Assembly: GCF_022045235.1 (NCBI RefSeq)
Contig: NW_027266273.1
Coordinates: 17,608,001-17,672,000 of the forward strand
DNA length: 64,000 bases
Source of the DNA: Haliotis cracherodii
Taxonomy: Eukaryota
Reading direction: 5' to 3'
Within the stretch, counting starts at the first letter, position 1. Every line of letters begins with the position of its first letter. Below are positions 14,336 through 61,940 of the stretch, one piece after another. The notes beneath the pieces were generated by a model that was not told the origin of the DNA, searched no databases, and saw nothing but the letters and a program-made list of their open reading frames with translations. Both the position numbers and the translations under genes were made by a program.

Positions 14336-14623
14336 ACGGAGACGATCTCAGGTTCTGCTCCATATCAAATTCCAAATTCTTTTGATGTAATGAACCTTGA
14401 AAAACTTATATGCGTAAGTATTTCCAAAACGTCTGTTGTCATGTGACATATCGGGCACGAGTGGCCAACTGGTCAGCGCCGTCATGCCAAGACACGATGA
14501 TCTTGGGTTCGAATCCCACTTTGGCCCGATTATAATAATGATGTGAAACACCCTAATTTCATAATTTAATGGTTGACCATGATAAAAACTACAAACTCCT
14601 TTTCTTTCAGATAAAACGTTTCC

Positions 14624-16750
14624 ATGGCAGCAATTGAAATGGACACAGTGGCGGGCCTAACGGGGTTCACAGACGCGATGAAATGCGTGTTTAATCTCCA
14701 CAAGCAGTACAAGGCGAAACTGGCTGCCAGAACAGACTCTTCATGGAACAATGAGTCGGTTGTCAGGGAAATCGCCACGGGGCTAACTCCCGAACATATG
14801 CTGATGTTCAACTCCAAGAACAGTAAAGGGAATACAGTGCTGCACTGTATAGCGGTGTACACTAAGAAACAACCCCAATCACAGAAGCTGCTGGAGCTGT
14901 TTGATCTTGTCATCCTATTGTCACCCTTCTGGTGGCGTCAGGAGAATGAGCTGCAGGCCCCTGAGGATGACAAAACACTTCAACGTTACAAGCGGGATGC
15001 TGTTCGTTTTTTAACCACGTCATTAAAGAATGGTGACCAGCTGTCTGTTCTTGAGTTGGCGTTCCAAATAGGGGCTACATCAATAGTAGAGAAACTGATG
15101 AAGATGGAACAGGTGACGTGTTCACACAAGATGTACGTCAAGGACGTCTCTTACAGATGGTATGACATTACCCATATCACTCCTCAGACAAGCATACAGA
15201 CAGGCACGGAAGCCAATCAGTGCTGTTTGGAAGGGCTAGTTTCACACTTACCGGACACTACAAATGACATACTGAACTTGCCACCTGTGCAGAAGATCGA
15301 ACAGATGTACAGCTCAGTCGCAGCTAAGATATACGCTGTTATCACATTAGTGCATGTCCTGTACATGACAGCATTTAGTGCTATCTGTTGCTTGTTGATG
15401 GAAAGAAGACAAACAGTTGACAAGGAGCCCATTCGAACAGTATTAGCCTTCTACTCCGTAGGTTTGATTGAACCCATATTAATAATCGCGTACTGGCTCC
15501 ATCGGATGTACAAGAATGTCGACTGCCGACCACGGTGCTGTTGCATGACCTGTTTCCACTTTTCCAAACCTAATACAGAGGTGACCTTGGTCTACGTCCT
15601 CAAGGCTTTTGCATGGCCAATCTGCTACATGACATTTGTATGCTTAGTACTTGCGTTTATGATCACGTTTTTGATCCAAGGATCCGGTGGAATACATTAT
15701 CTGATGTCTGTGACACTATTGTATGGTTGGTTGCTAACGTTTGCCTTTGCTAAAGGAATAAGGGGAGTTCGCTTCTTCCTCAACGTTATGTTTAAAGAAA
15801 TCCTTTTGGATGTGGTGAAGGTCATTTTGGTCTATGTGGTCTTTCTACTGGGGTTTGCTCTGGCCCTGCACTCACAGTTCTTGGATGCCCCGAACACAGT
15901 AGCGAAGTACAGAACACCTCTCCAAACGATGTTCCTTCTCTTTAACGTCATGCTGGGGATAACGGAAATGTGGGATGGAAATATAGAGGGACAACTAGAG
16001 GCTAGTGGAACGGCACCTGTATTCAGTCAACTCTTGTACAGTGGCTATATTGTGCTTGTAACCATCTTGCTGTTGAACCTTCTGATAGCCATGATGGTTA
16101 AATCCTACACCAGTGCCAACTACGAACACCCAGTGTCGTGGAAAGTGGAAAGCATCCAACTCGGACTGATGGTTGAGAATGCCGCCCCTTGGCTGTCGAG
16201 GCTGCTTGGTACAGGGTCCATTCATTCTGGGAGGGTCTTCGACGACGACACAGATCCGGATTTGCACGTATGGTACATTCAAGTGGGACACGAGAAGAGC
16301 GACTACAGAACCACGGGCAGGCGTCCTGAAAGATATGCTGTGACGCATGTCGAGGACAAGAGCGAATGTTTAACCTGTAAACGCCGTGGTGGAGGGAGCA
16401 ATTCGGAAGACTATGACAGACTCAGAGACAACATTGAAGCACTAGCGCACATTATGAATACCAGTACATCGGAGCTTGAAAACACGGTGAATAGCAGAAT
16501 ATCCTCTACAAAAAAATCGGTACATAAAACCAGAAAACTGGTTGTGGATGATGTTCAAAAATTGAATCAAAGGTTTTCGAATCTTGCTGAGAGTGTTGAG
16601 AATGCATTGACAAGAATCGCCGATATACAGGCGACATTGAAAAAACAAGCAGTACATAAGAAACAAGCAGAAACGAAGGTTGCCGTTACACCATCAGTCA
16701 CAAGTGAGGGAAAAACAGAGCCAAACAATGCCGCAAATGCTTGGACATGA
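14624..16750 (+). CDS. TRPV-like cation channel, paralog 2 (708 aa, single coding exon)
   Basis: NSKGNTVLHCIA ankyrin, YDITHITP linker, 6 TM, pore TMFLLFNVMLGITEMWDG, S6 YIVLVTILLLNLLIAMM, WKVESIQ TRP-box, C-terminal coiled coil. Acceptor tttctttcag at 14610 is followed by an in-frame TAA, so ATG 14624 is the start. Confidence 0.93.
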   Translation: MAAIEMDTVAGLTGFTDAMKCVFNLHKQYKAKLAARTDSSWNNESVVREIATGLTPEHMLMFNSKNSKGNTVLHCIAVYTKKQPQSQKLLELFDLVILLSPFWWRQENELQAPEDDKTLQRYKRDAVRFLTTSLKNGDQLSVLELAFQIGATSIVEKLMKMEQVTCSHKMYVKDVSYRWYDITHITPQTSIQTGTEANQCCLEGLVSHLPDTTNDILNLPPVQKIEQMYSSVAAKIYAVITLVHVLYMTAFSAICCLLMERRQTVDKEPIRTVLAFYSVGLIEPILIIAYWLHRMYKNVDCRPRCCCMTCFHFSKPNTEVTLVYVLKAFAWPICYMTFVCLVLAFMITFLIQGSGGIHYLMSVTLLYGWLLTFAFAKGIRGVRFFLNVMFKEILLDVVKVILVYVVFLLGFALALHSQFLDAPNTVAKYRTPLQTMFLLFNVMLGITEMWDGNIEGQLEASGTAPVFSQLLYSGYIVLVTILLLNLLIAMMVKSYTSANYEHPVSWKVESIQLGLMVENAAPWLSRLLGTGSIHSGRVFDDDTDPDLHVWYIQVGHEKSDYRTTGRRPERYAVTHVEDKSECLTCKRRGGGSNSEDYDRLRDNIEALAHIMNTSTSELENTVNSRISSTKKSVHKTRKLVVDDVQKLNQRFSNLAESVENALTRIADIQATLKKQAVHKKQAETKVAVTPSVTSEGKTEPNNAANAWT

Positions 16751-16940
16751 AAACGTATTCGAGGTTTTCATCATCATATCTGCACATATGAGAGACTTGT
16801 TTGATGACTCTTTCGCTATGCTTTTATTTAATTATCTATGATTGAAGTAGTCAGTGATATAGCTAACTTCCAAGGCCATTGTTACCCGCAACGACAAAGT
16901 ACACGTGATACTGCTGCATACCATTTCTTCTAAAGAGAAG

Positions 16941-17098
16941 GGGCGGTCGGGTAGCCTAGTGGTTAAAGCGTTCGCTCGTCACGCCGAAAACCCGGGTTCG
17001 ATTCCCGACATGGGTACAAAGTGTGAAGCCCATGTCTGGTGTCCCCCGCCGTGATGTTGCTGGAATATTGCTATAAGCGGCGTAAAACCATACTCACT
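16941..17098 (+). mobile_element. SINE family B in the probable 3' UTR of TRP paralog 2
   Basis: Complete family B copy. Confidence 0.88.
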
Positions 17099-18339
17099 CT
17101 ATCTTCTACAAAGAAACTAAATAGGAAAGTAGTGACTTGTTATTCCCTTACTGACTGTGATACCACGAGACTGATATGGTTAACTTAGCCTTTATTTTGT
17201 AAACTATTTTCTTTCCCCGTGAAATGAAAAGAATGACACGAACTATTAATAATTGCTTTATTGATTCTTAATTTTGAAAAGGGTGTCATTATAGGATACA
17301 AAGTTTAAGAAAACTTTATGACCATAAATATTACATATTTTAGTTTTATTAATAGATACTTATATAGTGTGTGATCTAGTATAAAACCGACTGTATAAAG
17401 CATCATGCCATTATGGGAGCGTCAGAGTAGTTATAGTGGTAGTGAGAGGATATACTAAAGTATGTATCTTCATAACTACAGTGGCTATAGTTGGATCTGA
17501 ATTTTGCTATATATGTTGCTGTTTATGCTTGTTGCACTGTATAACAAAATAAACAATCTCATAAACATTGTTGGTATAGTGTTCTACTGATGTGGACAAT
17601 ATTTCCTTTTGATATGGATTTTATTAGCCAAAGGCCTTCCCAACCAGGGCTGTAAACAAAGCTCATGGAAGCTATCTTAAAACACCTTAATCTTCTCCAA
17701 TGAATAAAACTGGTTTTGATGACGATGCTGATCTGGATGAGATAATGTGAGCAATGTGCCTCTTAAGTACTTTTATCATTGTTTGTGATCTTACGAATTA
17801 TGAAGCTCTAGTATGTTTTCACGTGACATATATGATAGTTATGAAAACAAATCAAAGTCCCTGCCCGGAGACTCATTCTGTCAACCACTGGTTTAGCAGG
17901 CTAGACTAACGTTATTTACAGACCGATGAACATGAAACCCTCACTCACTCACTCACTCACTCACCCATCCACTCATTCACCCACCCACCCACTCACTCGC
18001 TCACCTGGCCGTGCTAACATACGGTTGTAAACTACCGCTAACGTTCCCACGACCTCCTGTTTTCATAACCTGAATGGTTAAATCTCCAACTTGGGAACTA
18101 TTTACGTTCTTACACTTGCAAATCCGATCTCAAGATTTCTCTAGATTAACATAGCAGTTTTCAGGTGGTATAAATACAACCATTATTTTGTACAAGCGAT
18201 TTATAACTTCAATTCATTGAGACTTGAATGAGAGCCTGAATGAAATGTAAGCCTGCTGTTATATTCAAGGCAAGTGCGTGAATGTCATATCTGTCAATGG
18301 TCGTTTACTGATTCGGCCTTCTGTTGATAGTTCATGATC

Positions 18340-22598: not shown

Positions 22599-24669
22599 TC
22601 AACTTCTACGATTTGTGACCTTCACGTGACATGTCAAAGGAGCTCTTAAACGGCACGTGATTGTGACGTCATAGGACTTCTTGGATTCCACAGTGCATAG
22701 CCCGTACACATACGGCGGCTTGTCAAACATCCCAGAGTCCATGTATGCCTTGGCCATTCCGATAGACTCGGTAAACAGCACCTCGGGAAATAATTTCTGG
22801 AATTTCTGCAAACTGGTCACCACGTCTGACTCATGCTCCTTCACAGCAATCACTTCCAGCAATGTCTTCCTGTCGCCATCTCGTTTGCGTTCAATCGTGA
22901 AACCAGCACCTTTGGCTTTCTTGGTTCGGTACAAAGCTCGAACATGGCTGACACTTGAGATGTTCTGCATCTGTGCGATGTTGAAGGACAGCTCCGTATT
23001 TAGCATCTTTTGCAGTTTCGTATTTTCTATGTGAGAAAGTGTTAAACTCGTTATTCAAATGCAGAGTTAGGAAAGTGGCATGTTATTGTTTTAGCACAAT
23101 CTTGGTCAAACCAATGGATGTTACGTTCTTGTCGATAGTAAACCTAGGGCGTGTATGATTTAAGGTCGCCTTTAGCAATACCCCGTCTTTTCACGGCCGG
23201 GGGCACCAAGAAAGGGTGTGTTTGTTTGGTTTAACGCCGCACTCGTAAATATTCAAGCTAATCGAGTCTGAACCAGACAATCCAGTGATTGATATCATGA
23301 GCATCTATCTACGCAATTGGAATATGATGACATGCATCATCCAAGTCAGCGAGCCTGGCCACCCGATCCTGTTAGTCGTCTCTTACGACAAGAATAGTCG
23401 TCTTTTACGACAAGAGTGGGTTACTGAAGACGTATTCTACCCCGGATCTTCACGGGTCGAATCGAACCTTGTATTCGGCTTGGATAGCCAAGACTTTAAC
23501 CACTGTACTACCTCATCGTTCCAAATACGTCTCGAGTGCATGGAATTATGAAATAAAAAGAAACTCACTTTTCCCCGCAATGGAAAGTTCAATGGGATAG
23601 TGGTCGCTGACATCTTCGGCCTGAAACAATGACAAAGTACATAACGTTTTAAAAAACACAACGTAACACCTACTTTCGAACAAGTTTGGTAAAAATGTTG
23701 ACAGTTAATCATCGAAACAAGCGAGCCTGTTTGATACTACATAAACTATAAGCCGGAGGGAAACACTCACCTCTTCCTGGGAGAGACTGAACTCCGTGTC
23801 AAAGCGGAACACCTTGCAGCTGCCTGGAACTATGTTGGTCTTCAGCTGGTGCCCGGTCACGACAAACCTGAAGTACCAGTGACAAGGCGTGACAAGGTGT
23901 GACATATATACTTCATTGTGATATAGGGCTATCATATATCCCAACATTTGATCAGCAACCCATGCTTGCCGTAAAAGGCGACTATGCTTGTCGTAAGAGG
24001 CGACTAACGGGATTGGGTGGTCAGGCTCGCTGACTTGGTTGATGCATGTCATCGTATCCCAATTGCGTGGATCGATGCTCATGATATTTATCACTTGATT
24101 GTCTGGTCCAGGCGCGAATATTTATACAGACCGCTGGCATATAGCTTGAATATTGCTGAATGCGGCGTTAAACAACCAACCAACCCAACATTTGATTTGA
24201 TATGGGGATACGATATATCCCTACATTTGATGGCGATATGAGATTTATGACATTAATGTATCTCTTCACTTGATCGATGAAATCGGGGTACCATACCCCT
24301 CTACCTACACATACATAGTGCCATATCTCGACGTCCAGTATGGTAACGTGTAACACATTTTGAGTGGAGACATACAGTCTGAAAGTTTAAAAATATTTTG
24401 TCACGTATGTGAATTTATAAAGGTATTTGAAAGTTTCGTCTCTTCAGTTAGTAATAAGGCAATGTTTATTATATATTTTCTTGAACACAGATAACCATAA
24501 CTAACATTACAGATGCTGTGAATTTGAAATGTAGAATCCGTGTATCCAAATGTATGTTTGTAAAAGTAGATTTCAGAATTACCCTTTGGCAGTTGTAAAA
24601 TAAATATACTGCCGGACAAAAGAAAGTATACACCTTTTTTTTATTGTGGCTAAAATGACATGCTTATTC

Positions 24670-41019: not shown

Positions 41020-44000
41020 TCATTCATAGCTGATCTGATCTAGACGGTCCATCTCATTGCAAATTTCCGACAGTGATTTCGGGTTGTTTCTCCCAATTGT
41101 TAAAATATAGTTTGCTACATTCGTTGCGGTTTTCTGAGATAGATCACACTCTATATCTGTCAGTTCCTTTGTGAACAACCTGACACATGAATCTTCCACC
41201 ACCTGGTTATGACGGATGGGGACTCCAGGTGCTATCTCACGTGACATGCTCCGAAGCATCGGTAGCAGTTTCCGCAGTGCCTCTGACTGATGCTTTCCAT
41301 GATGTATGACGCTATTCAAAAGTTCCTGAACAATGGGCCGGTCGCGCTCATCTACCTGCTTCAATTGCTCCAGCAGGTGCTTCAGCATCATCTCCCTACC
41401 CTCTGTCTCTCGGTTGACGTGTCTAGATGGAACCATTCCTGGAGTCCAGCATCCGTCAGCGGCGTCCCGTGTTGGTGTGCCATCTCCACCTGTCTTGAAG
41501 TCCATATTCTCATGTGCAGTCGTGCATTCCTTGACCTGATTCCCGAGTCGGATGTCCTTTGTATCCGGATGCTTGCTGCTCGCGTATTGTGCAGATGCGC
41601 AACCTCCGGTGCCACCATTCAGATGGCTTCCACCTGTGTCAAATGGGATTTGAACAGGCATTCCTGCATGGTCAGTATTGTCAACATCGACGCGAATTGT
41701 AGCAAGCTCATTGACACGGACTTGGTAAGGAATACTGCAAGCATCTGAAGATTTATCGGGACTTTCCCCGTGAAGAACAGGCTTGGAACATGATGCATTC
41801 TCTCCTTCTGGTGACACAATTACCCAGTCACCTTCCACCAGGTCGTCTGTATTCCCACATTCGGTTTCTACATCACACCTGTCTACTGAAAGACGTTTGG
41901 ACTGAAGATTCAAACCAGGCCTGCGAAGCTCTACACAAGGCATACATTCTTCAAGCTGAAATGAAATAATATGCTAAAAAGTATATGGGAACAATCATCA
42001 TTAAGTGTTAAACACTGAGTAGTGTATTGCAAGGATAGCTTAGAAAAGTATTATACTATTCAACTATATAATAAATATTTTATTTAGTTTCTGTTTCTTT
42101 CCCACTAAATTGCAAACGTCGAGATTTGACGACTCGTGTTCAGGTTCAGGAGGATGTCCCACTTAATCATCCTCAATGCCTCGATGTGTACATGTATTGT
42201 CATTCAGGATTAGTAGCTGCAGAATTTACTGTTTGTTTGTTTGTTTGTTGTTTACGCCACACTCAGCAATATTCCAGCGAAATGACGACGGTCTGTAAAT
42301 AATCGATGTAGGGTGTGGATTTGGCGGATTTGTAATATGCATTATATGTAAGCATATTATTACATTATCATTATACTTAGCTTGACAACGTATCGAAATC
42401 ACAGGTAACTGATTATGTATATCATGAGGCTGAGACACTGATTCACTCGTTGCTCGTTTTTGTGTGAATAGTCTGTACGTACTTACCTGAGTTTCGTCAC
42501 TTGTTCGAAACAATATTCCCATAGTATTGTACAGGACGGATAAGAAGGATGCTGAAACAAGCACCACATGCCTATGGTGATGTAGCAAAGTTGGAAGAAC
42601 TTGCATGACATAAACACATACAAGGCGTATGTACATGAAGAACGAGTGTTTACAGGATGAATAAAAAAACCAGAATAAAACTGCCCATCACATAATCTAT
42701 TACAAATTCAATGCGTTAATTTTATCGATTGGCATAAAATTGCCAATCACATTCATTTAACATTTGATCCCAATATTATCCGGTTTGAAATGATATAAAA
42801 AATGTTCTTATCATTACATCCTGAAATTAGAACTATCAACAGAACACCCAATGTCGTGCCACAAGGTACCTAGATCAATCTACTGAACAGACATCTTGCC
42901 GAGGCAAGAGCGTTAACTAACTGTAAAAGGCCAGTTTCCACCCTTGCCGAACTAGGCTGGAATTCCTGGGCTCGATTGTAGCGCCACCATCGACTATTAC
43001 AAGTTATGTCCCTTCTATATCCCTCCTATGGACCAATAAGATTCCTACTCTCACATACGATCTGATCGATAATCAAGATCAATATTGTTATAAAACGTGT
43101 CTTACTTCGCGAAATGCATCAAATCACGTGAGCACCTTGATCAAAAACTTGAAGAGATTTGGAAAATATCTGTTGACGCCGAGTTGACATGCTTTGCAAA
43201 TTCTGCAATCGTCCGAAATCGGCCTCTGGAAGATGTTGAACAGACAACTGGGATTCACTTACGTTTGCTGTTGTCGAGATGATGGTCGTCATTGCCAGAC
43301 TCTGCAGCAGCGTCTCGTGTGTGTTGTTGGTCCTGATGTTCGACCATCACGTGTTTTTCACTTGCGCTGTCAAGTCGGACTCGTGATTTCCTTTCTGTCA
43401 GTGATGTGTCTTTAATACAATCATCACGGGTTCCTGGACAATAAGACAGCAGTGATAATAGCAAAGGATGCGTTTGAGAACACACTGCACACGTACTTCA
43501 CAGGGAACATCCATATATACGATAGGGGGCGATGGGTTAGCCTAGCGATTAAAGCGTTTGCTAGTCACGCCGAAGACCCGGGTTCGATTCCCCACATGGG
43601 CACAATGTGTGAAGCCCATTTCTGGTGTCCCCCGCCGGGATATTGCTGGAATATTGCTAAATGCGGCGTAAAACCATACTCACTCACTCACTCATATATA
43701 CGATAGGGAAATGACACTGTGCACTTATCTATCACTTACCCAGCCTTGACTTGAGGGCAATGTTGTCTTCCTGTGACCCAATTCCATTAAAGTGAAAGTA
43801 GACGTGATTATCTGAAATTAAGAATGTCAGTGTTACACATCGGGATTGATACATAGTCATGGCATGGCCTAACGGGAGTACAGCTGTGTGGCGTTAGGCA
43901 ACAAACGCACACTTACTTTTATACGCAAATGGTGTAAATAGCGGGTGCTACTAATGGAGCAGGACATGCTTACCCTTTTCGCAAGCATCTGATTTGCGGT

Positions 44001-47339: not shown

Positions 47340-47900
47340 GTGAGTGAGTATGGTTTTACGCCGCTTTTAACAATATTCCAGCAACATCACGGCGGGGGAC
47401 ACCAGACATGGGCTTCACACTTTGTACCCATGTTGGGCATCGAACCCGGGTCTTCGGCGTGACGAGCGAACGCTTGAACCACTAGGCTACCCGACCGCCC
47501 CTTCTCTTTAGAAGAAACGGTATGCAGTAGTATCACGTGTACTTTGTCGTTGCGGATAACAATGGCCTTGGAAGTTAGCTATATCACTGACTACTTCAAT
47601 CATAGATAATTAAATAAAAGCATAGCGAAAGAGTGATCAAACAAGTATCTCATATGTGCAGATATGATGATGAAAACATCGAATACGTTTTCACGTCCAA
47701 GCATTTGCGGCAGTGTTTGGCTCCGTTCTTCCCTCATTTGTGACTGATGGTGCAGCGGCAACCTTCGTTTCTGTTTGTTTCTTATGTACTGCTTGTTTTT
47801 TCAATGTCGCCTGTATATCGGCGATTCTTGTCAATGCATTCTCAACGCTCTCAGCAAGATCCGAAAACCTTTGATTCAAATTTTGAACATCATCCACATC
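47340..47900 (-). pseudogene. 3' fragment copy of TRP paralog 2 (last ~69 codons, 3' UTR and SINE B)
   Basis: DDVQNLNQRFSDLAESVENAL...AANAWT* is nearly identical to the paralog 2 C-terminus; nucleotide similarity extends over 16540-17098. Confidence 0.92.
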
Positions 47901-47902
47901 CC

Positions 47903-48262
47903 GAGGTGAGGTGAGGTGAAATGGGGTTTAACGTCTCGTCCAAGATTATTGCACTTATACAGCGACGTGCATGTACGTGTTTGTGTTTGTGTGGCTGCTT
48001 GTACTAGTCCGGACTGATGCCGAGTTATAGTGCTAGCTCACTGAGATACCATGTCGCAGTTTAATATGAATACCCCACTCAGACACAGTATACTGACTCC
48101 GAGCCGACCAGTCCTTGTTTTAGCCCCTTAATGTCGAGCGCCAGACAGGGTAACAACAAGTACCATCTTTTAACGTCTTTTGGTATGACGCGGCTGGGGA
48201 TCGAACCCCGGACCTGCCGCTCTCCGGGCGGACGCTCTACCACTAGACCACAGAGGCGGTCT
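47903..48262 (-). mobile_element. SINE family A
   Basis: Complete copy, imperfect TSD gg(t/a)tgtgga. Confidence 0.88.
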
Positions 48263-51306: not shown

Positions 51307-51983
51307 AAAGTTCTGAGGGAGTACTCATTTTTTAAGTTACTGTTGGGAAAATATGTGTCTTAAAATATCATAGGTTGGGCATACTTACCCTAGATACACC
51401 CTCCCGCCTACCTATATTTTTCATAATTTGTAATTCTCCAATTCTTTATAATGTTAAACAGCTCCTTTGGTCTCTTTGGTGTATATGAGTTGCGAAAGTT
51501 GACTTTATAGTGGAGTAAAAATCTAATTTTGAATGTTCATTTAACTTATATATACAATATAATAATATGTAATATATATAATATATATAATAATAATATA
51601 TAATAACACATATCTATACAACTGAAAACTCTACTTGGAAGGCCCATAACAAAGGGAATATATATTCCAGCATTTCAAAAGACGATAAACGAATCTTTGC
51701 TTGCTGTGATCTGTGTATGACTAAAATATGTGATTATTTACAACATTAAAACGTCCTATTATGAATGCAAAATACATGTATTTGTTAAAAGAATGAATTC
51801 TATAAAATAATTTAAATCTAAAGCGTACAATGATTCATTATAGTACCTCAAAGATTGATTTTAGTTCACCCTTTGTCTTACAAATAGAACCATACTTATG
51901 CTATCTATGACAGAAGTTAAGGTGATAAATAGGGCTGACACATTTTGATATCAATAAGCAATTTCGGCGTTTCAGTGTTCAAA

Positions 51984-52132
51984 GTGAGTGAGTGCATGTA
52001 GCAATATTCCAGCAATATCACGGCGGGGGACACAAGAAATGGGTTTCACACATTGTACCCATGTGGGGAATCGAACCCGGGCCTTCAGCGACGAGCGAAC
52101 ACTTTAACCACCACACTCCACCCACCGCCCCA
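51984..52132 (-). mobile_element. SINE family B shared by both arms (partner 61110-61265)
   Basis: Same position in both arms. Confidence 0.8.
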
Positions 52133-52719
52133 CGTGATCAAAGTTCTTAGAGGGAAAAAGGAACACCAACTCAGTACTTTGGGGTATATACACGTTTTAT
52201 TAATACAAGTAGCTATGTACAAGAAGGCATATATGTGCTGGCTGGGCTAAGAGCAATTCCAATCCTAGAATATTCATCCATTGTACTTTTCTCCATTCCA
52301 TTATGATAAATATGCTTGACCAAATTTGTCACCAATCAAGTAAAGTTGAAGTTACTATCACATAGATTGCGATTGGCGTCTTCTCCAGCGGTTGGATTCA
52401 GTGTGCTCATCATAATAGAATAACGTAGAACACAGGATTGGGGGAGGCCATATGGTTTCAATAACATCAAATTGCTAATAACATCAAAGGCATATGACAA
52501 AGAAGATGTAATAAATATAAAAATAAACTAACAAATGAAAAAAGAATGTATACACAGTTTAGGTTGTCTGACAATAGGGGTAAAATGCATTAGAAAATGT
52601 AAGGATTAAGATATCACGTTTTATATCACTTTTCATGTGTCTGTACAAGATCACATAAAACAAAGGTGTTATTGCTAATATTTGACATAGCACGTGCAAA
52701 TACATGACACCCATAAGAG

Positions 52720-53950
52720 GTGGCGCTCGTTTTAATTTGAGCAAAAAGATCCTTTATCTGCTTCATGGGCATGTCTGCATCTTGCAATGTATTACAACCT
52801 GGAAACATAATGCATTACTGTTAGTCCATCTATCTCAATAACATCAGTAATATTACCATATCACATGTATCAACACCAAGTTACAACACCATTTTCATAA
52901 TCATAAAAAAATGCTAAACGAATAGTCCATTGTACGATTCCGACAATGACTTAAATATGTGTTAGCCAATCTCTAACAAAACGTTCCTGCAAGCCGTAAA
53001 CATGTTTTGAAATGTTATCCATATTGCAGTTGTTTTCCATTTAAAACAATTCCTGTAACAATTCACTTTTGATTTAGTACTGTAATAGAAGTTTATCATG
53101 TGTAATACTATTGTGGTCATGGAAAGATAGTCTGTGCACTTTAAATACATATTTCACTATTCTGCAAAAGGTACAGTAATAGTAATAGCCCATCAATAGT
53201 TGAATAACGGAATACATTTAACTAAACTAAACTTGTTTATGGTTAGAAAACGTTGTTGATGAATAGCAAATCCCCCAAACATTGATGTTAAAAATATATC
53301 ACATGATCTGATTTGATAAAAGTGTTCACGTCCATCAAAGCTATGCGATATTATTTGACAAATATTAATCCGGATGCTGAAAACCACAAAATGATTTGTT
53401 GTTTAGTTATAACCTGGGGACTCGTGCATATTCCATGCAGAACTTACTAGGAAAGACCCTGCCAGTTTGGATCCATCCATATACCCTCCTGACGCCCCTG
53501 TCGTCATTGTTGTGCACAGCTGTTCATCCTGAACTGATGAAGCCACATTGTGTACATTTTCTAAAACTAATCAAATCTTGAATAATGATATCTTACAAGC
53601 GCATTACAACAACTCCATACGATAACGTCCAAGACATCAAAAACTCAAGCTAGGTAACTTTATAACTGTTTGTCTTCACACCCCTCTTGAGGCGTCAATC
53701 ACTAAAAGTAATCATTATATTGATCCATTCTCGATTAATTAAGCAAGCACAATCACAAAGGAATCTTAGACATCCATAGCATTAATGCATCTTTGTCTAT
53801 GCCTATATACAGTGAAACACCGAAAGCCTATCTACCTGTGGGATGGGGCGTCTCCTGTGTGTGTCTCTGTGCCTCTTCTAAGGCCGGTGCCACTTCATCC
53901 TTACCCGCCAAGACATCAGGTAAATTGCGTTCTTCTCCTGTGTGAACCAT
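52720..53950 (-). pseudogene. Deleted copy of orphan protein B
   Basis: Exon 1 is intact (MVHTGEERNLPDV..). Exon 2 lacks ~28 nt. Exon 3 jumps from KQIKDLFAQIKTS directly to sequence matching 60515 onward (~970 bp deletion). Confidence 0.88.
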
Positions 53951-55399
53951 TCTGAAACACCGAACACATGTGATAAGCATATTGAATGGCGTTGAGTTGA
54001 AAATCGACCCACGCAATTGCACGAGGACATGCAATCAACCAAGTCAGCGAGCTTGACCACCCGATCCCGTTAGTCGCCTCTTACGACAAGCATGGGTTGC
54101 TGTAGACCTTTTCTAGCCCGGATATACAGGGGTGGGGCATGTGAGTACTTTAGACAACAACATACGGCTTGATTGATAATAAATAGGAGCTAACGACCCA
54201 CAAAGTGATGTTTTAGGAGACTTGAGGTCCACTTTTAACCATGCTTTACATCGATCCTATTAATGAGAGAGCGTGAGTGACGAGAGTTTTTTTACTTGCC
54301 AGACCTTAAAATGAAATTAATACCTTGACCTATGTTGAGACTTATCTGGTAAGTGATGCAGCTGTAGTTGTTACAGGTAGATGTGTCATCAAGCGTATTC
54401 CTGACAGGAGCAACACCAAGACAACACAGCTCCTCTACCTCAGACTGAATGTCAACACAGCAACCACAATTACACCTGTAACATTATTGCATCAGGAATA
54501 TTTATTTTCATGATTTACACTTTGTTTAAGTATACAGTTCATTACCAGGCCAAGGCATATAAATTAATATCAAGTGAAAACAATTTTACATTTTTACTAA
54601 GGGATATGCAATTAATAATTACAACACAGGGTATCTGACTTGAAGTATCCATGATGTCCGAATGATAAAACATATTTTAAAATGCCAAGTAAATTTTAAT
54701 AGTGGCACAAACTTATGGTTACTGTTAGGTCTATTTAAGAGGTATCAAATATCTGCCTGAAGAAATTTTCCAGTGACCAGTTATGCTGGGGTATGTAACA
54801 GTTCCCCAGCAATGTTGCAATAGCTTTGTTGTTATTCCGTGGTGAGAACAAGCCAATAGTATAAACAATGATCTATTAAACTGATGTCAAACAAAACACA
54901 AAATATTGGGACTCATCTGGACCGTCTTTTCAAAAGGTGCTAGTCGCGTACAACGGGTGGCAGATCGGACAGCCGATTGAACACGACATTGAACAATATG
55001 ACAGTCGTTTTGAATATGAATTTGGATCTTAAATATTATTTCATAGATCTGGAGAGGTGAACATGTGGCTCTTGTCAGTATGTTTACAATCGGAAACAAC
55101 GTGTTGACTCAGCAGCCTGCGGGACGAACACCTAAATCGTGTTACGCAAAGAGTAGCAACGGTTAGCGACATATCTATTTGTTTATTAAAATTGCCATGT
55201 AGCCTTCGAAGAAGCCCATCGTGTGGTGAGGATAGTGAAACATTTTTTATAAGCTTGGATTGGACGATATTGGCATGGAATCGTGACAGGGTGGCACGTG
55301 ATAAAAGGTTAAAGAAGAGTATGGGTTAAGCTACCAGGCATGGCAAATATCTCTAAGAATACGTTTCGCTTCTGGGGGTGTACATTAACAGGACCGCGC

Positions 55400-56360: not shown

Positions 56361-57847
56361 CACTGAGCTGTAATGAAATATTTAGGCCAAGTTTATTCTT
56401 ACCACAGTGGCCTCGTCGGTTGTTCAGTAGATGGGTCGGAGGCCGATGACACGAATAAAAGGTCTTCGCTTGATTCCTCTTCGTCACCATACCTTGACTT
56501 TATCTGGCAGTTCTGGAAATTTTCTGGTGAAGGTACTTGATATCTTTTGCGTTGAGAATAGACAGGAACCCAGTTGAATTGTCACCAATTACGTCATAAT
56601 CTAAGGGGGATAACTCAGGTCTGTTTAGCTCGGAAAACGAAGGCCTCATAACGGCATATCATTTTCACACTGTTGTGAGCTTCCTACGTTCACTGTGAAA
56701 AAAATGAGTGTATATTTTCAAACACTGATACAAACTAATTCTAAAATTGCGTTTTGTTTACAAAAAGAAAGAAAGTGATTTTTGCGTGTACACTTTGAGA
56801 CCATATTGTTTTAAAAGGTTGTTGTGTAGGTTATCTTTTGAATATATTTAGTACAAAAACATCTAAATAATTAACTAGGTGTATATAAGACTAAAGAAAA
56901 TTAGACACAGTTGAACGATTAACGCGCAAAAATATGCATCCGCGAGTTTGTGCTGTACACTGTATGGCCCATTTCCTACTTTCACGGCCGAGTCCTCTTT
57001 GCGGTTACGGGAATGGGCGTGAATTGCCGATTGCAATTGCACGTGGCGAGATGACGTCACGGATACGGTATGTCCTTCCGGTATTGATGATAACCTATTT
57101 TTAGATCGTGGGCCTTCCCACATTTTACACAAGGCGTTGGGACATCGAGGCAACAACGTTAACACGTCTACATATTGTCTCACCGTTTGACCGCTGAAGA
57201 CAGCAATCGAATAAGATTTACCTCTAATTTCCCATGGAATTCAAGTTTATACCGGTACAACTAAATCTCTCTGGATGTGTTCACGAGAGAGGTAAGCACA
57301 ACCTTTACTGAGTGTAACCCACATGACATGAATTCATACCTCCATGTCATGTTCACACAATTCATTTTCTGTTCACAATAGTAGTATCCACCATTAATGT
57401 CCCAGATTGCCTTGTATATCGTCTTTCTAAACGACAATCTCTTTATTAACATTCCTTGCTTTAATTGGCTTCTTCCCCTCGGAATATCTCAAGTCTCAAC
57501 ATAGGTCAAGATGTTAATTTCATTTTAAGGTCTGGCAAACTACTGTTTACTTCGCAAATCGTTACTTTAACCATTACCTACTAATTCTGTAGCATTCTGA
57601 ACGTATAACATTATAAAGAAATTTAGCATGCATACATTAACCTTGATGAGAAAAATGACACATATCTAAATATAAATATGCAAATGTAAAAAAACTCTCG
57701 TCACTCACGCTCTCTCATTGATAGGATCGATGTATAGCATGGTTAAAAGTGGACCTCAAGTCTCCTAAAACATCACTTTGTGGGTCGTTAGTTCTCATTT
57801 ATTATCAATCAAGCCGTATGTTGTTGTCTAAAGTACTCACATGCCCC

Positions 57848-58062
57848 ACCCGTGTATATCCGGGTTAGAATAGGTCTTCAGCAACCCATGCTTGTCGTAA
57901 GAGGCGACTAACGGGATCGGGTTGTCAGGCTCGCTGACTTGGTTGATTGCATGTCCTCGTAAACCAATTGCGTGGGTCGATGTTCTTGATATCAATCACT
58001 AGATCGTCTGGACCAGATTCGATTAATTACAGACCGCCGTCATATAGGTTGAATATTGCTCA
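57848..58062 (+). mobile_element. SINE family D (truncated partner at ~54000-54125)
   Basis: Matches consensus. Confidence 0.82.
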
Positions 58063-58291
58063 ATATCTGCTATATCCATCTAGGACAAACTGAAATTCAA
58101 ATGTTTTGTGTTGGAATTGTCCTGGATGGATATAGCATGTATATAGCATGTATATATAGTTTAATTGTTCAAAGTAGATATTGTGCAGTCTGCTTACAAT
58201 TTGATGAACCCCTTAACATTCCTGGCACACAACATCGTATTCCAACTCAACGCCATTCAATATGCTTATCACATGTGTTCGGTGTTTCAGA

Positions 58292-60449
58292 ATGGTTCAC
58301 ACAGGAGAAGAACGCATTTTACCTGATGTCCCGGCGGGTAAGGATGAAGTGGCACTGGCCTTAGAAGAGGCACAGAGACACACACAGGAGACGCCCCACC
58401 CCACAGGTAGATAGGCTTTCGGTGTTTCACTGTATATAGGCATAGACAAAGATGCATTAATGCAATGAATGTCTAAGATTCCTTTGTGTTTGTGCTTGTT
58501 TAATTAACCGAGTATGGATCAATATAATGATTACTTTTAGTGATTGACGCCTCGAGAGGGGTGTGAAGACAAACAGTTATAAAGTTACCTAGCTTGAATA
58601 TTTGATGAATGTCTTGGACGTTATCGTATGGAGTTGTTCGCCTATCTGCTTGTAAGGTATCATTATTCAAGCTTTGATTTGTTTCAGAAAATGTACGCAA
58701 TGTGGCTTCATCAGTTCAGGATGAACAGCTGTGCACATCAATGACGAAGGGGGCGTCGGGAGGGTATATGCTTGGATCCAACGTGGCAGGGGCGCACCAT
58801 GGAGATAATTACATTCTGTACTTTCCAAGTAAGTGTTGCATGGAATATGCACGAGTCCCCTTGTGTTGACCAGGATGAATTTATAACTAAACAACAAATC
58901 ATTTTGTGGTTTTCAGCATCCGGATTAATATTTGTCAAATAATATCGCATAGCTAGGGGATGTGAACACTTTTATCAAATCAGATCATGTGATATATTTT
59001 TCACATCAATGTTTGGGGGATTTGTTATTCTTCAACCGACAACGTTTTCTAACCATAAACAAGTTTAGTTTAGTTACATGTATTCCGTTATTCTTCTATT
59101 GATGGACGTATTACCTTTTGCAGAATAGTGAAATATGTATATAAAGTGCACCGACTATATTTCTATGACCATAATAGTATCACACATGATATAATTCTAT
59201 TGCAGTTGTACACAAATCAAAAGTGAATTGTTACAGGAATTTTTTAAATGGAAAAAAACTCTGCAATATCGATAACAGTTCAAAACATGATTACAACTTG
59301 CTGAAACTAGAGATTGGCTAACGCATATTTAAGATATTGTCGGAATCGTACAATGGACTATTCTTTTAGCATTTTTTTATGATCATGAAAATGGTGTTGT
59401 AACTTGGTGTTAATACATGTAATATGTTAATATTACTGATGTTATTGAGATAGATGGACTAACAGTAATGTATTATGTTTCCAGATGCAGACGTACCCTT
59501 TAAGCAGATAAAGGACCTTATTGATCAAATGAAAACGAGCGTTTCTTCCACCAGGACTGCACAGAATCAACCGTGCCAAACTCCTATGACTGACAAGGGA
59601 AACGACAATGCTGATGAACACATCACGAGTGGGGTCTCATATGCGGAACATGAAGAGGAACACCTGATGACAGATGAGGAACTCTACTTTCACCTTCATC
59701 AGTGTCACATCGATGTAAGTGATGAGGACATTAATGCCTTAAAGGATGATGAGGTGTATTGTTATATTGTGGATTTCCTTGCGTGCTACAATATCAGGAG
59801 GTCAGGACCAAGATGTGATTCCACCGCATTGGGAGTTAAGATGAGAAATACAGTGATTCACCATACACGTAACAAGATAGACCCGCCCAATGCTGCAACA
59901 GAAGAAACTACTTCAGATGTCAAACTTAAGTTTAATGTCAAAGGTGGGAAAGATTCCGGGAAGCAGGGAAAGGACCTTCTTGATGATGTCGACTCAGAGC
60001 ATCTGATGGAAGATTGTACAATTGCACCAACACAACTACATGGACTTAATGACATCCCTGGAAGATGTGTGGAGTTTACATATGATTTGAGATGGATCCA
60101 GTCTCGCGCAGTGAGAGTCATTACCAGGCACAATGTGGAAAAAACTGTTGAGATAGGAAAATTACTTTCTTTAGAAAAAGTGCGCAATGTTTTCTCATTT
60201 TTGGACGCTATTCTGACTGAATTTGATCAACATTGGACTACGCGCGGTTCAGGGTTTTATCCACTTCATCCTGAATCTATTTCAGAAATTATCAGAATTG
60301 ATTTGAGAGACATTCAGAACATATTAGTAAGAGTGAAAACTAAACAAAATGTCGAATTGATTTTGCAGATTAGTGCCATGAAACCATCAAAGATCAAGAT
60401 TCAAAAGATCGAACATTTTCTGTCTGGCATGCTTTTAGAAGAATATTGA
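58292..60449 (+). CDS. Orphan protein B (~406 aa); exons 58292-58406, 58688-58828, 59485-60449; C-terminal duplicated helical module
   Basis: Canonical acceptors (gtttcag, gtttcag, tttccag) and donors (gtagat, gtaagt), both introns phase 1, open frame MVHTGEERILPD..PHPT|ENVRNV..GAHHGDNYILYFP|NADVPFKQIK..MLLEEY*. Confidence 0.8.
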
Positions 60450-61570
60450 GCGACACAATTACATCAATTGATGATTGGGTCATATGATACACCATGTCGT
60501 CAGTACTGCCCTGTCACTTCCTATGGGTGTCATGTATTTACACGCACTATGTCAAATATTAGCAATAACACCTTTGTTTTGTGCGATCTTGTACAGATAT
60601 ATGAAAAGTGATATAAAACGTGATATCTTAATCCTTACATTTTCTAATGCATTTTACCCCTGTTGTCAGCCAACCTAAACTGTGTATTAACCTTTTCTTC
60701 ATTTGTTAGTTTATTTTTATATTTATTACATCTTCTTTGTCATATGGCTTTGATGTTATTAGCAATTTGATGTTATTGAAACCATATGGCCTCCACCAGT
60801 CCAGTGTTCTACATTATTCTATTATGATGAGCACACTGAATCCAATCGCTAGAGAAGACGCCAATCGCAATCTTTCTGATAGTAACTTCAACATACATAG
60901 ATCAGTGACAAATTTGGTCAAGCATATTTATCATAATGGAATGGAGAAAAGTACAATGGATGAATATTCTAGGATGGGAATTGCTCTTAGCCCAGCTAGC
61001 ACATATATGCCTTCTTGTACATAGCTACTTGTATTAATAAAACGTGTATATACCCCAAAGTACTGAGTTGGTGTTTCTTTTTCCCTCTAAGAACTTTGAT
61101 CACGTGAGCGGTGGGGGGATAGTGGTGGTTAAAGTGTTCGCTCGTCGCCGAAGGCCCGGGTTCGATTCCCCACATGGGTACAATGTGTGAAGCCCATTTC
61201 TTGTGTCCTCTGCCCTGATGTTGCTGGAATATTGCTACATGCAGCGTAAAACCATACTCACTCACTTTGAACACTAAAACGCTGAAATTGCTTATTGATA
61301 TCAAAATGTGTCAGCCCTATTTATCACCTTCTGTCATAGATAGCATAAGTATGGTTCTATTTGTAAGACAAAGGGTGAACTAAAATCAATCTTTGAGGTA
61401 CTATAATGAATCATTGTACGCTTTAGATTTAAATCATTTTATAGAATTCATTCTTTTAATAAATACATGTATTTTGTATTCATAATGGGACGTTTTAATG
61501 TTGTAAATAATCACATATTTTAGTCATACACAGATCACAGCAGGCAAAGATTCGTTTATCGTCTTCTGAA

Positions 61571-61940
61571 ATGCTGGAATTTCTATTCCCCTTACTATGG
61601 GCCTTCCATCTATGTCTCAAGAATAGTTTTCAGTTGTATAGATATTTGTTTTATATTGGTTGTAGAATAAATGATCATTCAAATTTAGATTTTTATTCCA
61701 CTATGAAGTCAACTTTCGCAATTGAACAATATTTGCTTCATATACACCAAAGAGACCAAAGAAGACGTTTTACATTATTTAGAATTGGAGAATTACAAAT
61801 TATGAAAAATATAGGTAGGCGGGAGCGTGTACCTAGAAACCTTAGATTTTGTCGTTTTTGTAAACATATTATAGAAGATAAGTTGCATTTTTGTTAGTAT
61901 GCCCAACTTATGATATTGTAAGACACATTTTCCTAACAAT
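61571..61940 (+). mobile_element. Non-LTR retrotransposon (CR1/L2-group) ORF2 3' fragment; partner at ~51320-51680
   Basis: FTLFRIG..IGRRERVPRNLRFCRFCKHIIEDKLHF resembles the GRxxxxPRxxRxCxxC..EDxxHF C-terminal motif. Confidence 0.7.

Follow-up and report, generated by a model that had tools for sequence, protein, structure and literature searches.

The window considered here – the 64,000 nucleotides between positions 17,608,001 and 17,672,000 of contig NW_027266273.1 of Haliotis cracherodii (RefSeq assembly GCF_022045235.1) – holds two divergently oriented genes, TRP1 and TRP2, that encode short channel proteins of the TRPV type (Table 1). TRP2 lies in an open reading frame on the forward strand (14615-16750; ATG at 14624) and encodes 708 amino acids (aa). 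TRP1 lies on the reverse strand and extends beyond the edge of the window: its full product corresponds to a protein of 667 aa in the public collection, of which 612 residues are encoded within the window. The two are 48% identical over 480 aligned codons, and the coding region of each is one open frame free of introns. A protein identical to TRP2 is likewise present in the public collection, and the nearest named orthologue, from Haliotis rufescens, is 708 aa long and 97% identical; public annotation names these genes TRPV5/6-like and leaves their starts unchanged. As database records, the short TRPV proteins are not new. An earlier note, made from the letters of the window, had described them as a divergent TRPV-like subfamily: the TRPV-type core of a predicted structure and the position of the genes in a phylogenetic tree, both set out below, indicate that this subfamily is real.

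Table 1. Features of the window connected with TRP1 and TRP2 (CDS, coding sequence; UTR, untranslated region; residue numbers refer to TRP2).
Feature	Position	Strand	Remark
TRP1 CDS, first 612 of 667 codons	1..1836	-	paralogue of TRP2
Putative splice-acceptor-like site, 8 bases 5' of TRP1 ATG	1845..1856	-	
Pyrimidine tract, acceptor AG (14609-14610) and in-frame TAA (14612-14614), 5' of TRP2 ATG	14598..14614	+	
TRP2 CDS	14624..16750	+	single open frame, 708 aa, TRPV-like channel subunit
Two retained degenerate ankyrin-type repeats, residues 69-159	14828..15100	+	repeat scan and model
Linker beta-hairpin, helix-turn-helix, S1-S6, TRP helix, C-terminal beta strands, residues 166-555	15119..16288	+	TRPV-type core
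Cys cluster, S2-S3 loop, residues 301-310	15524..15553	+	
Pore-helix end and selectivity filter, residues 441-452	15944..15979	+	
CxxC, residues 582-585	16367..16378	+	TRP2 only; low-confidence loop of model
C-terminal helix, residues 595-681	16406..16666	+	predicted parallel homo-oligomeric coiled coil
Orphan 560-bp copy of TRP2 3' end	47342..47901	-	96% identical to 16540-17099

Pfam recognizes Ion_trans in TRP2 (expect value E 8e-11) and finds no ankyrin family in TRP2, in TRP1 or in a third short abalone paralogue of 609 aa. A repeat scan gives one to two ankyrin repeats for this short group, and the AlphaFold model of TRP2 (108 sequences; mean predicted local distance difference test score, pLDDT, 80.4; predicted template modelling score, pTM, 0.72) contains two ankyrin-type helix pairs (residues 72-107 and 142-159), in keeping with the proposal that only the last ~2 repeats were retained. 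The pairs are preceded by three N-terminal helices and followed by a hairpin, S1-S6, a TRP helix and strands. Strands 166-181, helices 201-217 and strands 533-555 correspond to the linker hairpin, helix-turn-helix and C-terminal strands which, with S1-S6 and the TRP helix, TRP2 shares with TRPV1-6 and with Nanchung and Inactive (Nan/Iav). All 47 matches listed by Foldseek are TRPVs, TRPV6 being the best (E 8e-14), and the best match by VIA-align is TRPV1 (Z 19.8, root-mean-square deviation 5.3, 452 residues aligned); among solved structures TRPVs are the best matches of TRP2 both by sequence and by fold, at ~20% identity. Pfam, the model and the fold matches together place six transmembrane helices, a pore loop and a TRP helix in TRP2, and the six-repeat ankyrin domain of TRPVs is missing from it: judged on its predicted fold TRP2 is TRPV-like but, having fewer than six repeats, a variant and not a canonical member.

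In the repeat numbering of TRPV1, the retained repeats are the predicted equivalents of repeats 5 and 6. Residues 62-68 of the model fall at TRPV1 277-283, the N-terminal helices reach only ~230, and the alignment extends to TRPV1 752. The ATP site of TRPV1 lies in residues 115-211 (PMC9149226), and in TRPV3 it is through repeats 2-5 and finger 3 that adjacent subunits touch (PMC6719031). As the ATP site and the finger-3 interface fall outside the aligned range, both are predicted to be largely absent from TRP2, in contrast to vertebrate TRPVs and insect Nan/Iav, in which the six repeats, the ATP site and the finger-3 interface are all present. The Cys cluster CRPRCCCMTC between S2 and S3 and the CxxC that had been reported for TRP2 are both there; the former, for which TRP1 has a smaller Cys pair at the same position, may be a site of acylation or redox chemistry.

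The C-terminal helix of TRP2 had been described as a coiled coil of ~100 aa: a long helix is indeed predicted, though of 87 residues. Modelled in four copies, residues 590-685 form a parallel in-register bundle with a score of 0.48 (best of three controls, 0.01), and the runs agree in at least 96% of contacts with pLDDT of at least 77. The mark applied to this score was calibrated on two copies only: among solved homo-pairs 21 of 30 attain it, in eukaryotes 17 of 29 and in animals 7 of 16, as does just one of seven eukaryote cases without an older solved relative; single chains never do (0 of 23; eukaryotes, 0 of 30). So read, the bundle supports self-association of the C-terminal helix. Relatives carry a C-terminal coiled-coil-like helix too, so that the coiled coil would be inherited and in TRP2 only lengthened.

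The GNT(V/I)LH motif begins at residue 69 of TRP2 (as GNTVLH) and at residue 88 of TRP1 (as GNTILH), that is 68 and 87 residues past the start, close to the ~65-90 given earlier; in the 609-aa paralogue 54 residues precede the GNT motif. An in-frame TAA does stand directly past the acceptor of TRP2, and all four upstream GTRAG donors tested for this gene end in it. For TRP1, the candidate donor at 3335 does give an in-frame stop, eight codons ahead of the ATG, the donor itself being only putative; nine of 10 upstream donors give open stretches of no more than 21 codons. The claim that no ankyrin exon is missing also holds up within the window: searches by tblastn with 11 proteins and two profiles found no ankyrin-coding exon elsewhere in the six frames of the window, and the starts recur across Haliotis species. 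The H. rufescens orthologues of TRP2 and TRP1 are equal to them in length (708 and 667 aa), and 67 of the first 68 residues of TRP2 are identical in that species; the Haliotis rubra orthologue of TRP1 (XP_046543014.1, P0096) has the same start; and the 609-aa paralogue is represented by five records of 609 aa each, four of them NCBI models and one a Logan contig of 1,988 bases. Contigs of all four sequencing runs cover parts of both TRP frames without skips. That these runs are RNA is presumed, yet run X2 holds a spliced contig of a neighbouring gene; in run X7, contig 29 (443 letters) matches 14609-15035 and leaves 16 letters over at the acceptor end. Five lines of evidence indicate that the short N-terminus of TRP1 and TRP2 is genuine.

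A profile of nine short proteins, compared to 1.84 billion representatives, gave 86 matches below 1e-30. Beyond abalone the best of these are proteins of ~1,200 aa that align only from residue 600-700 onward. These long relatives (P0070-P0253; about 1,150-1,260 aa) come from bivalves, gastropods, a chiton, a cuttlefish and an annelid, carry automatic names such as TRPA1-like, ankyrin-3-like or uncharacterized, and combine a TRPV-type membrane core with a C-terminal coiled-coil-like helix. Examples are Pomacea XP_025080554.1, Ruditapes XP_060555490.1, Pecten XP_033732060.1 and proteins of Solemya, Liolophura and Dimorphilus. Identity to the short genes is 25-34% over the last repeats, membrane core and tail, and the filter is mostly IGMG(E/D). 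The repeat scan, which returned six repeats for each of two TRPV6 controls, counts 12-18 in 41 long relatives and 5-7 in an abalone group of 755-759 aa, as against 1-2 in the short group. In the predicted structure of one long member, ~19 helix pairs precede the same core and a C-terminal helix of 69 residues. The six-repeat baseline against which the short genes had been measured does not apply, the parent clade having two to three times as many.

The tree was built from 48 of 93 first-aligned rows over 474 columns, which begin at the last repeats and end at the C-terminal strands. In it TRP1 pairs with TRP2 (support 100/98), the 609-aa group joins the pair (100/99), and next comes the 755-759-aa group (100/99). 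Together these abalone proteins are nested in a clade of 25 rows (100/99) and a long-ankyrin clade of 35 rows (99/99), and a fast tree of all 93 rows gives the same nesting. TRPV5/6 and Nan/Iav fall apart from the long-ankyrin clade, the basal fork staying open among these rows. A phylogeny of this kind had been suggested earlier with TRPVL and TRPA references, which the present one lacks; what it does supply is a place for the pair within a mollusc-annelid clade, next to the abalone gene TRPV-like_29. The nesting of short forms within long ones makes loss, specific to abalone, the likely direction: the genes have likely lost most of their ankyrin repeats from an ancestor with 16-19 of them. 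When the first 54-87 residues were compared in 24 pairwise tests, a single one (609-aa group against Pomacea) reached z 6.0, and profile tests, in which 13-95 of 200 shuffles reached the score, did not confirm it. The two-repeat forms may accordingly have arisen either via a six-repeat form or by independent loss. Six short matches from outside abalone (P0079, P0081, P0085, P0103, P0128 and P0247) were not counted as independent losses: they start 54-74 residues ahead of GNT, those scanned have a recognisable extra repeat, those included in the tree fall elsewhere, and they may be partial gene calls. Also in the tree is another divergent clade of TRPV-like proteins (100/99; P0154, P0168, P0182 and, from the annelid Paralvinella, P0152) with few recognisable ankyrin repeats and a pore region of the NVVT(D/E)LD type.

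The 755-759-aa group corresponds to a published gene. Hdh-TRPV-like_29 of Haliotis discus hannai, described by Kim and Sohn (2026) as TRPVC/D-like with two exons and six repeats, is expressed preferentially in hepatopancreas and is induced by heat as well as by cold (PMC12980990). Its primers for quantitative PCR translate onto proteins of 755 and 758 aa (P0222 and P0223; residues 419-422 and 458-461), their spacing equals the stated product of 137 bp, and the cluster also has the 759-aa member listed in that survey; we identify the sister group as TRPV-like_29 on these grounds. It shares with the short genes a poverty of introns, the same core and the C-terminal helix, and differs from them in length, in its roughly six repeats, in sequence (32% identity) and in its filter, FGMSE. 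Aligned to the long profile it falls into two pieces, with ~300 N-terminal and ~130 internal positions missing. An internal loss of about four repeats in this gene (P0074, P0222, P0223, P0318) leaves one fused repeat.

The same survey bears on the claims that canonical TRPVs are multi-exon and that a single-exon coding region betrays a retrogene. The former does not hold for abalone, where six of the eight TRPV rows have one to three exons (TRPVL, of 959 aa, has 25), and the latter is unsupported, the sister gene being intron-poor already (PMC12980990). The TRPV rows of the survey include no protein of 667 or 609 aa. Hdh-TRPV-like_27 (708 aa, two exons) was considered as the TRP2 orthologue and rejected, not firmly: it is listed with four repeats, its scaffold neighbours are of 756 and 735 aa (PMC12980990), and our TRP2 searches returned no close paralogues of the 756/735-aa type, so that it is probably another gene.

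The proposal of a local duplication, on the other hand, is borne out by the sister relationship of TRP1 and TRP2. The orphan copy at 47342-47901, which appears to be a relic of local duplication, holds the last ~70 codons of TRP2, its 3' UTR and a repeat; it is bounded on its 5' side by a repeat element (47909-48261), and no other TRP pieces lie beside it. Upstream of the two genes the only sequence in common is a repeat element. Nonsynonymous (dN) and synonymous (dS) divergence between TRP1 and TRP2 are 0.44 and 1.66 over the 480 codons, dS being near saturation, and 0.27 and 1.18 from S5 to the TRP helix. In their membrane region the 609-aa proteins of H. asinina and H. rufescens agree at 258 of 290 residues.

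The filter motif NVMxG(I/M)TEMWDG, present in both TRP1 and TRP2, had been regarded as an unusual pore. HMMER aligns MLGITE of TRP2 to TIGMGE of TRPV2: compared to the GMG(D/E) type, the Gly and Glu are kept and the second Gly is replaced by Thr. Across 98 relatives the filter Gly is kept in 93 and an acidic residue in 74; the position of Thr447 is most often G (45), A (18), D (13), S (9) or E (7), and Trp450 occurs in a single relative. GITD occurs in one long relative, whereas G(G/V)VEMF replaces the motif throughout the 609-aa group. From these alignments the TRP2 filter would appear to be a variant of the TRPV1-4 type in which only Thr447 and Trp450 are rare: the earlier description stands for these two residues and was overstated for the rest, which falls mostly within clade variation. 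The S6 gate motif and the Trp of the TRP helix are intact in TRP2, and the kept Gly and Glu would point to a Ca2+-permeable, non-selective pore like that of TRPV1-4 and not of the TRPV5/6 type.

TRPA1 has a C-terminal coiled coil, and the long clade resembles it in this and in repeat number; a long-clade member lies by its Atlas features nearest the pyrexia/TRPA1 clusters. The 14-18 repeats of TRPA channels are seen in the parent clade and not in TRP1 and TRP2 (1-2), and the C-terminal coiled coil of TRP2 is predicted only. In the core, TRPVs rank above TRPA1 for TRP2 (TRPV6, E 2e-14; TRPA1, E 1e-7) and for the parent clade, whose membrane part has TRPV6 and TRPV5 as its best solved matches, TRPA1 being best only for the ankyrin part.

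Lineage-specific divergence of TRP channels is common in molluscs. A mollusc-only gamma-TRPV clade outside TRPVA and TRPVB, with members of 803-899 aa, includes H. rufescens (PMC13402157); it is mollusc and TRPV-like as the short genes are and differs from them in length, and none of the 13 H. rufescens and 11 P. maximus rows in that cephalopod survey equals a short gene or a known long-clade accession. Passages from surveys of scallop, oyster and animals at large (PMC8539334, PMC8004665, bioRxiv 2021.11.14.466824) mention no ankyrin-poor TRPVs; their trees may include long-clade members under other names. A literature search that took in few subscription papers found no published description of the short genes or of the long-ankyrin clade, and the mollusc-annelid clade of ~1,200-aa proteins is possibly undescribed as a clade.

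Taking the sequence and model evidence together, we put at roughly 0.6 the probability that TRP1 and TRP2 are conserved TRPV-type subunits, left with two repeats, that likely form tetrameric non-selective cation channels. Ankyrin repeats would have been lost from an ancestor with 16-19, the last two being kept, and the membrane core together with the predicted C-terminal coiled coil would hold the tetramer, the inherited coiled coil perhaps taking over the cytoplasmic contact in place of finger 3. With the repeats that carry the ATP/calmodulin site and the finger-3 contact of TRPV1-4 apparently absent, the channels would be gated at the level of the membrane, by lipids, temperature, redox chemistry or acylation of cysteines in the S2-S3 loop, and not by ankyrin ligands. 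Responses to heat and cold persist in human TRPA1 deprived of its ankyrin domain (PMC9576766). More tentative, and at somewhat less than even odds, is the broader proposal of an undescribed mollusc/annelid TRP subfamily that combines a TRPV membrane core with 16-19 ankyrin repeats, as many as in TRPA channels, and a C-terminal coiled coil; abalone would have reduced it to six-repeat and two-repeat forms, the latter being working channels that assemble via the coiled coil and gate without finger 3 or the ATP site.

Several observations tell against complete, working channels, and are best weighed with the alternatives that they favor. Upstream exons might add ankyrin repeats through another acceptor, the gene models being incomplete. 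One of the 10 upstream donors for TRP1 gives an open stretch of 52 codons, the first 215 bases of the TRP2 frame, from the TAA as far as the GNT codon, hold 13 more AG dinucleotides, a 5' exon was not recovered from the contigs of the four runs, where repeats obscured joints and loose ends, and public gene models with equal starts can share a bias. Against this stand the window free of ankyrin-coding stretches, protein lengths that are equal between species and recur in a Logan contig, the almost invariant first 68 residues of TRP2, and the presence of other genes within ~3.5 kb of both TRP starts: we consider incompleteness very improbable. A 5'-truncated retrocopy, later duplicated locally, would account for the intron-free coding region, the truncation and the acceptor just ahead of both ATGs, and would fit either function; it is improbable, however, given that the paucity of introns, seen in the sister gene and in most abalone TRPV rows, predates the pair, and that no intron-rich parent was found. 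A poly(A) remnant or target-site duplication would not be expected to outlast a dS above 1. The tree has no rows for TRPV1-4, TRPVL or TRPA1, which makes the place of the long-ankyrin clade among TRP families provisional, and the end branches of the short group are long (0.47-1.27).

Those branches, together with the orphan fragment nearby and a frame that shifts near residue 250 in the record of H. rubra TRP1 (through faulty assembly, perhaps, or in a broken allele), would also fit duplicates that have lost their function and are decaying. This is very improbable: frames of 609-708 codons stay open across species, dN is well below dS, and the fold is predicted with confidence. Silent or modulatory subunits, acting only in heteromers with TRPV-like_29 or each other, where they would tune or suppress the channel, are a plausible reading and the main alternative: in vertebrate TRPVs the interface between the beta-sheet and ankyrin repeats 2-5 controls gating (PMC6719031), and disruption of repeat 6 in an isoform of TRPV1 yields a protein that fails to leave the cell interior and acts as a dominant negative (bioRxiv 2025.01.24.634766). 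The lack of a finger-3 interface is as expected of such subunits, and the clade-wide C-terminal helix could pair paralogues. Assembly through a homotypic coiled coil is further weakened for TRP1, in which the coiled-coil-like stretch is much shorter (~25 residues by eye), and the bundle predicted for TRP2 may reflect memory of solved bundles. We nevertheless regard silent or modulatory subunits as rather unlikely: the filter Gly and Glu are kept, as are the gate motif of S6 and the Trp of the TRP helix, constraint is strongest in S5-S6, and three paralogues are retained.

Debate on how far the ankyrin domain matters for the assembly of TRPVs and for their sensing of heat still draws on engineered mutants. 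The genes described here offer a natural series, with ~16-19, ~6 and ~2 repeats on one membrane core. Conduction by the two-repeat forms would mean that a TRPV-type channel can do without the ankyrin interface; should they prove silent, abalone has dedicated genes for a modulatory subunit. The comparisons also suggest that many mollusc proteins automatically named TRPA1-like or ankyrin-3-like are of TRPV type, and that inventories of abalone TRP channels miss three genes with a heat-induced sister.

Between the two divergent TRP genes lies a spliced gene on the forward strand (5564-6126 and 10346-11274) with a weak TIR-domain match (E 0.008); the run X2 contig bridges its two parts, with ~216 further letters between them, a GT at 6127 and an AG at 10344-10345. 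Elsewhere in the window, open frames at 41020-41973 (reverse strand, 317 aa) and 22599-23054 (reverse strand, 151 aa) have no Pfam family above cut-off and are probably exons of other genes. An inverted duplication (51390-54295 and 57686-61836; 86-95% identity) contains an open reading frame of 326 aa (59469-60449) without a clear Pfam family, and the segment 29143-31465 comprises two tandem-repeat arrays with raised GC content and strong skew.

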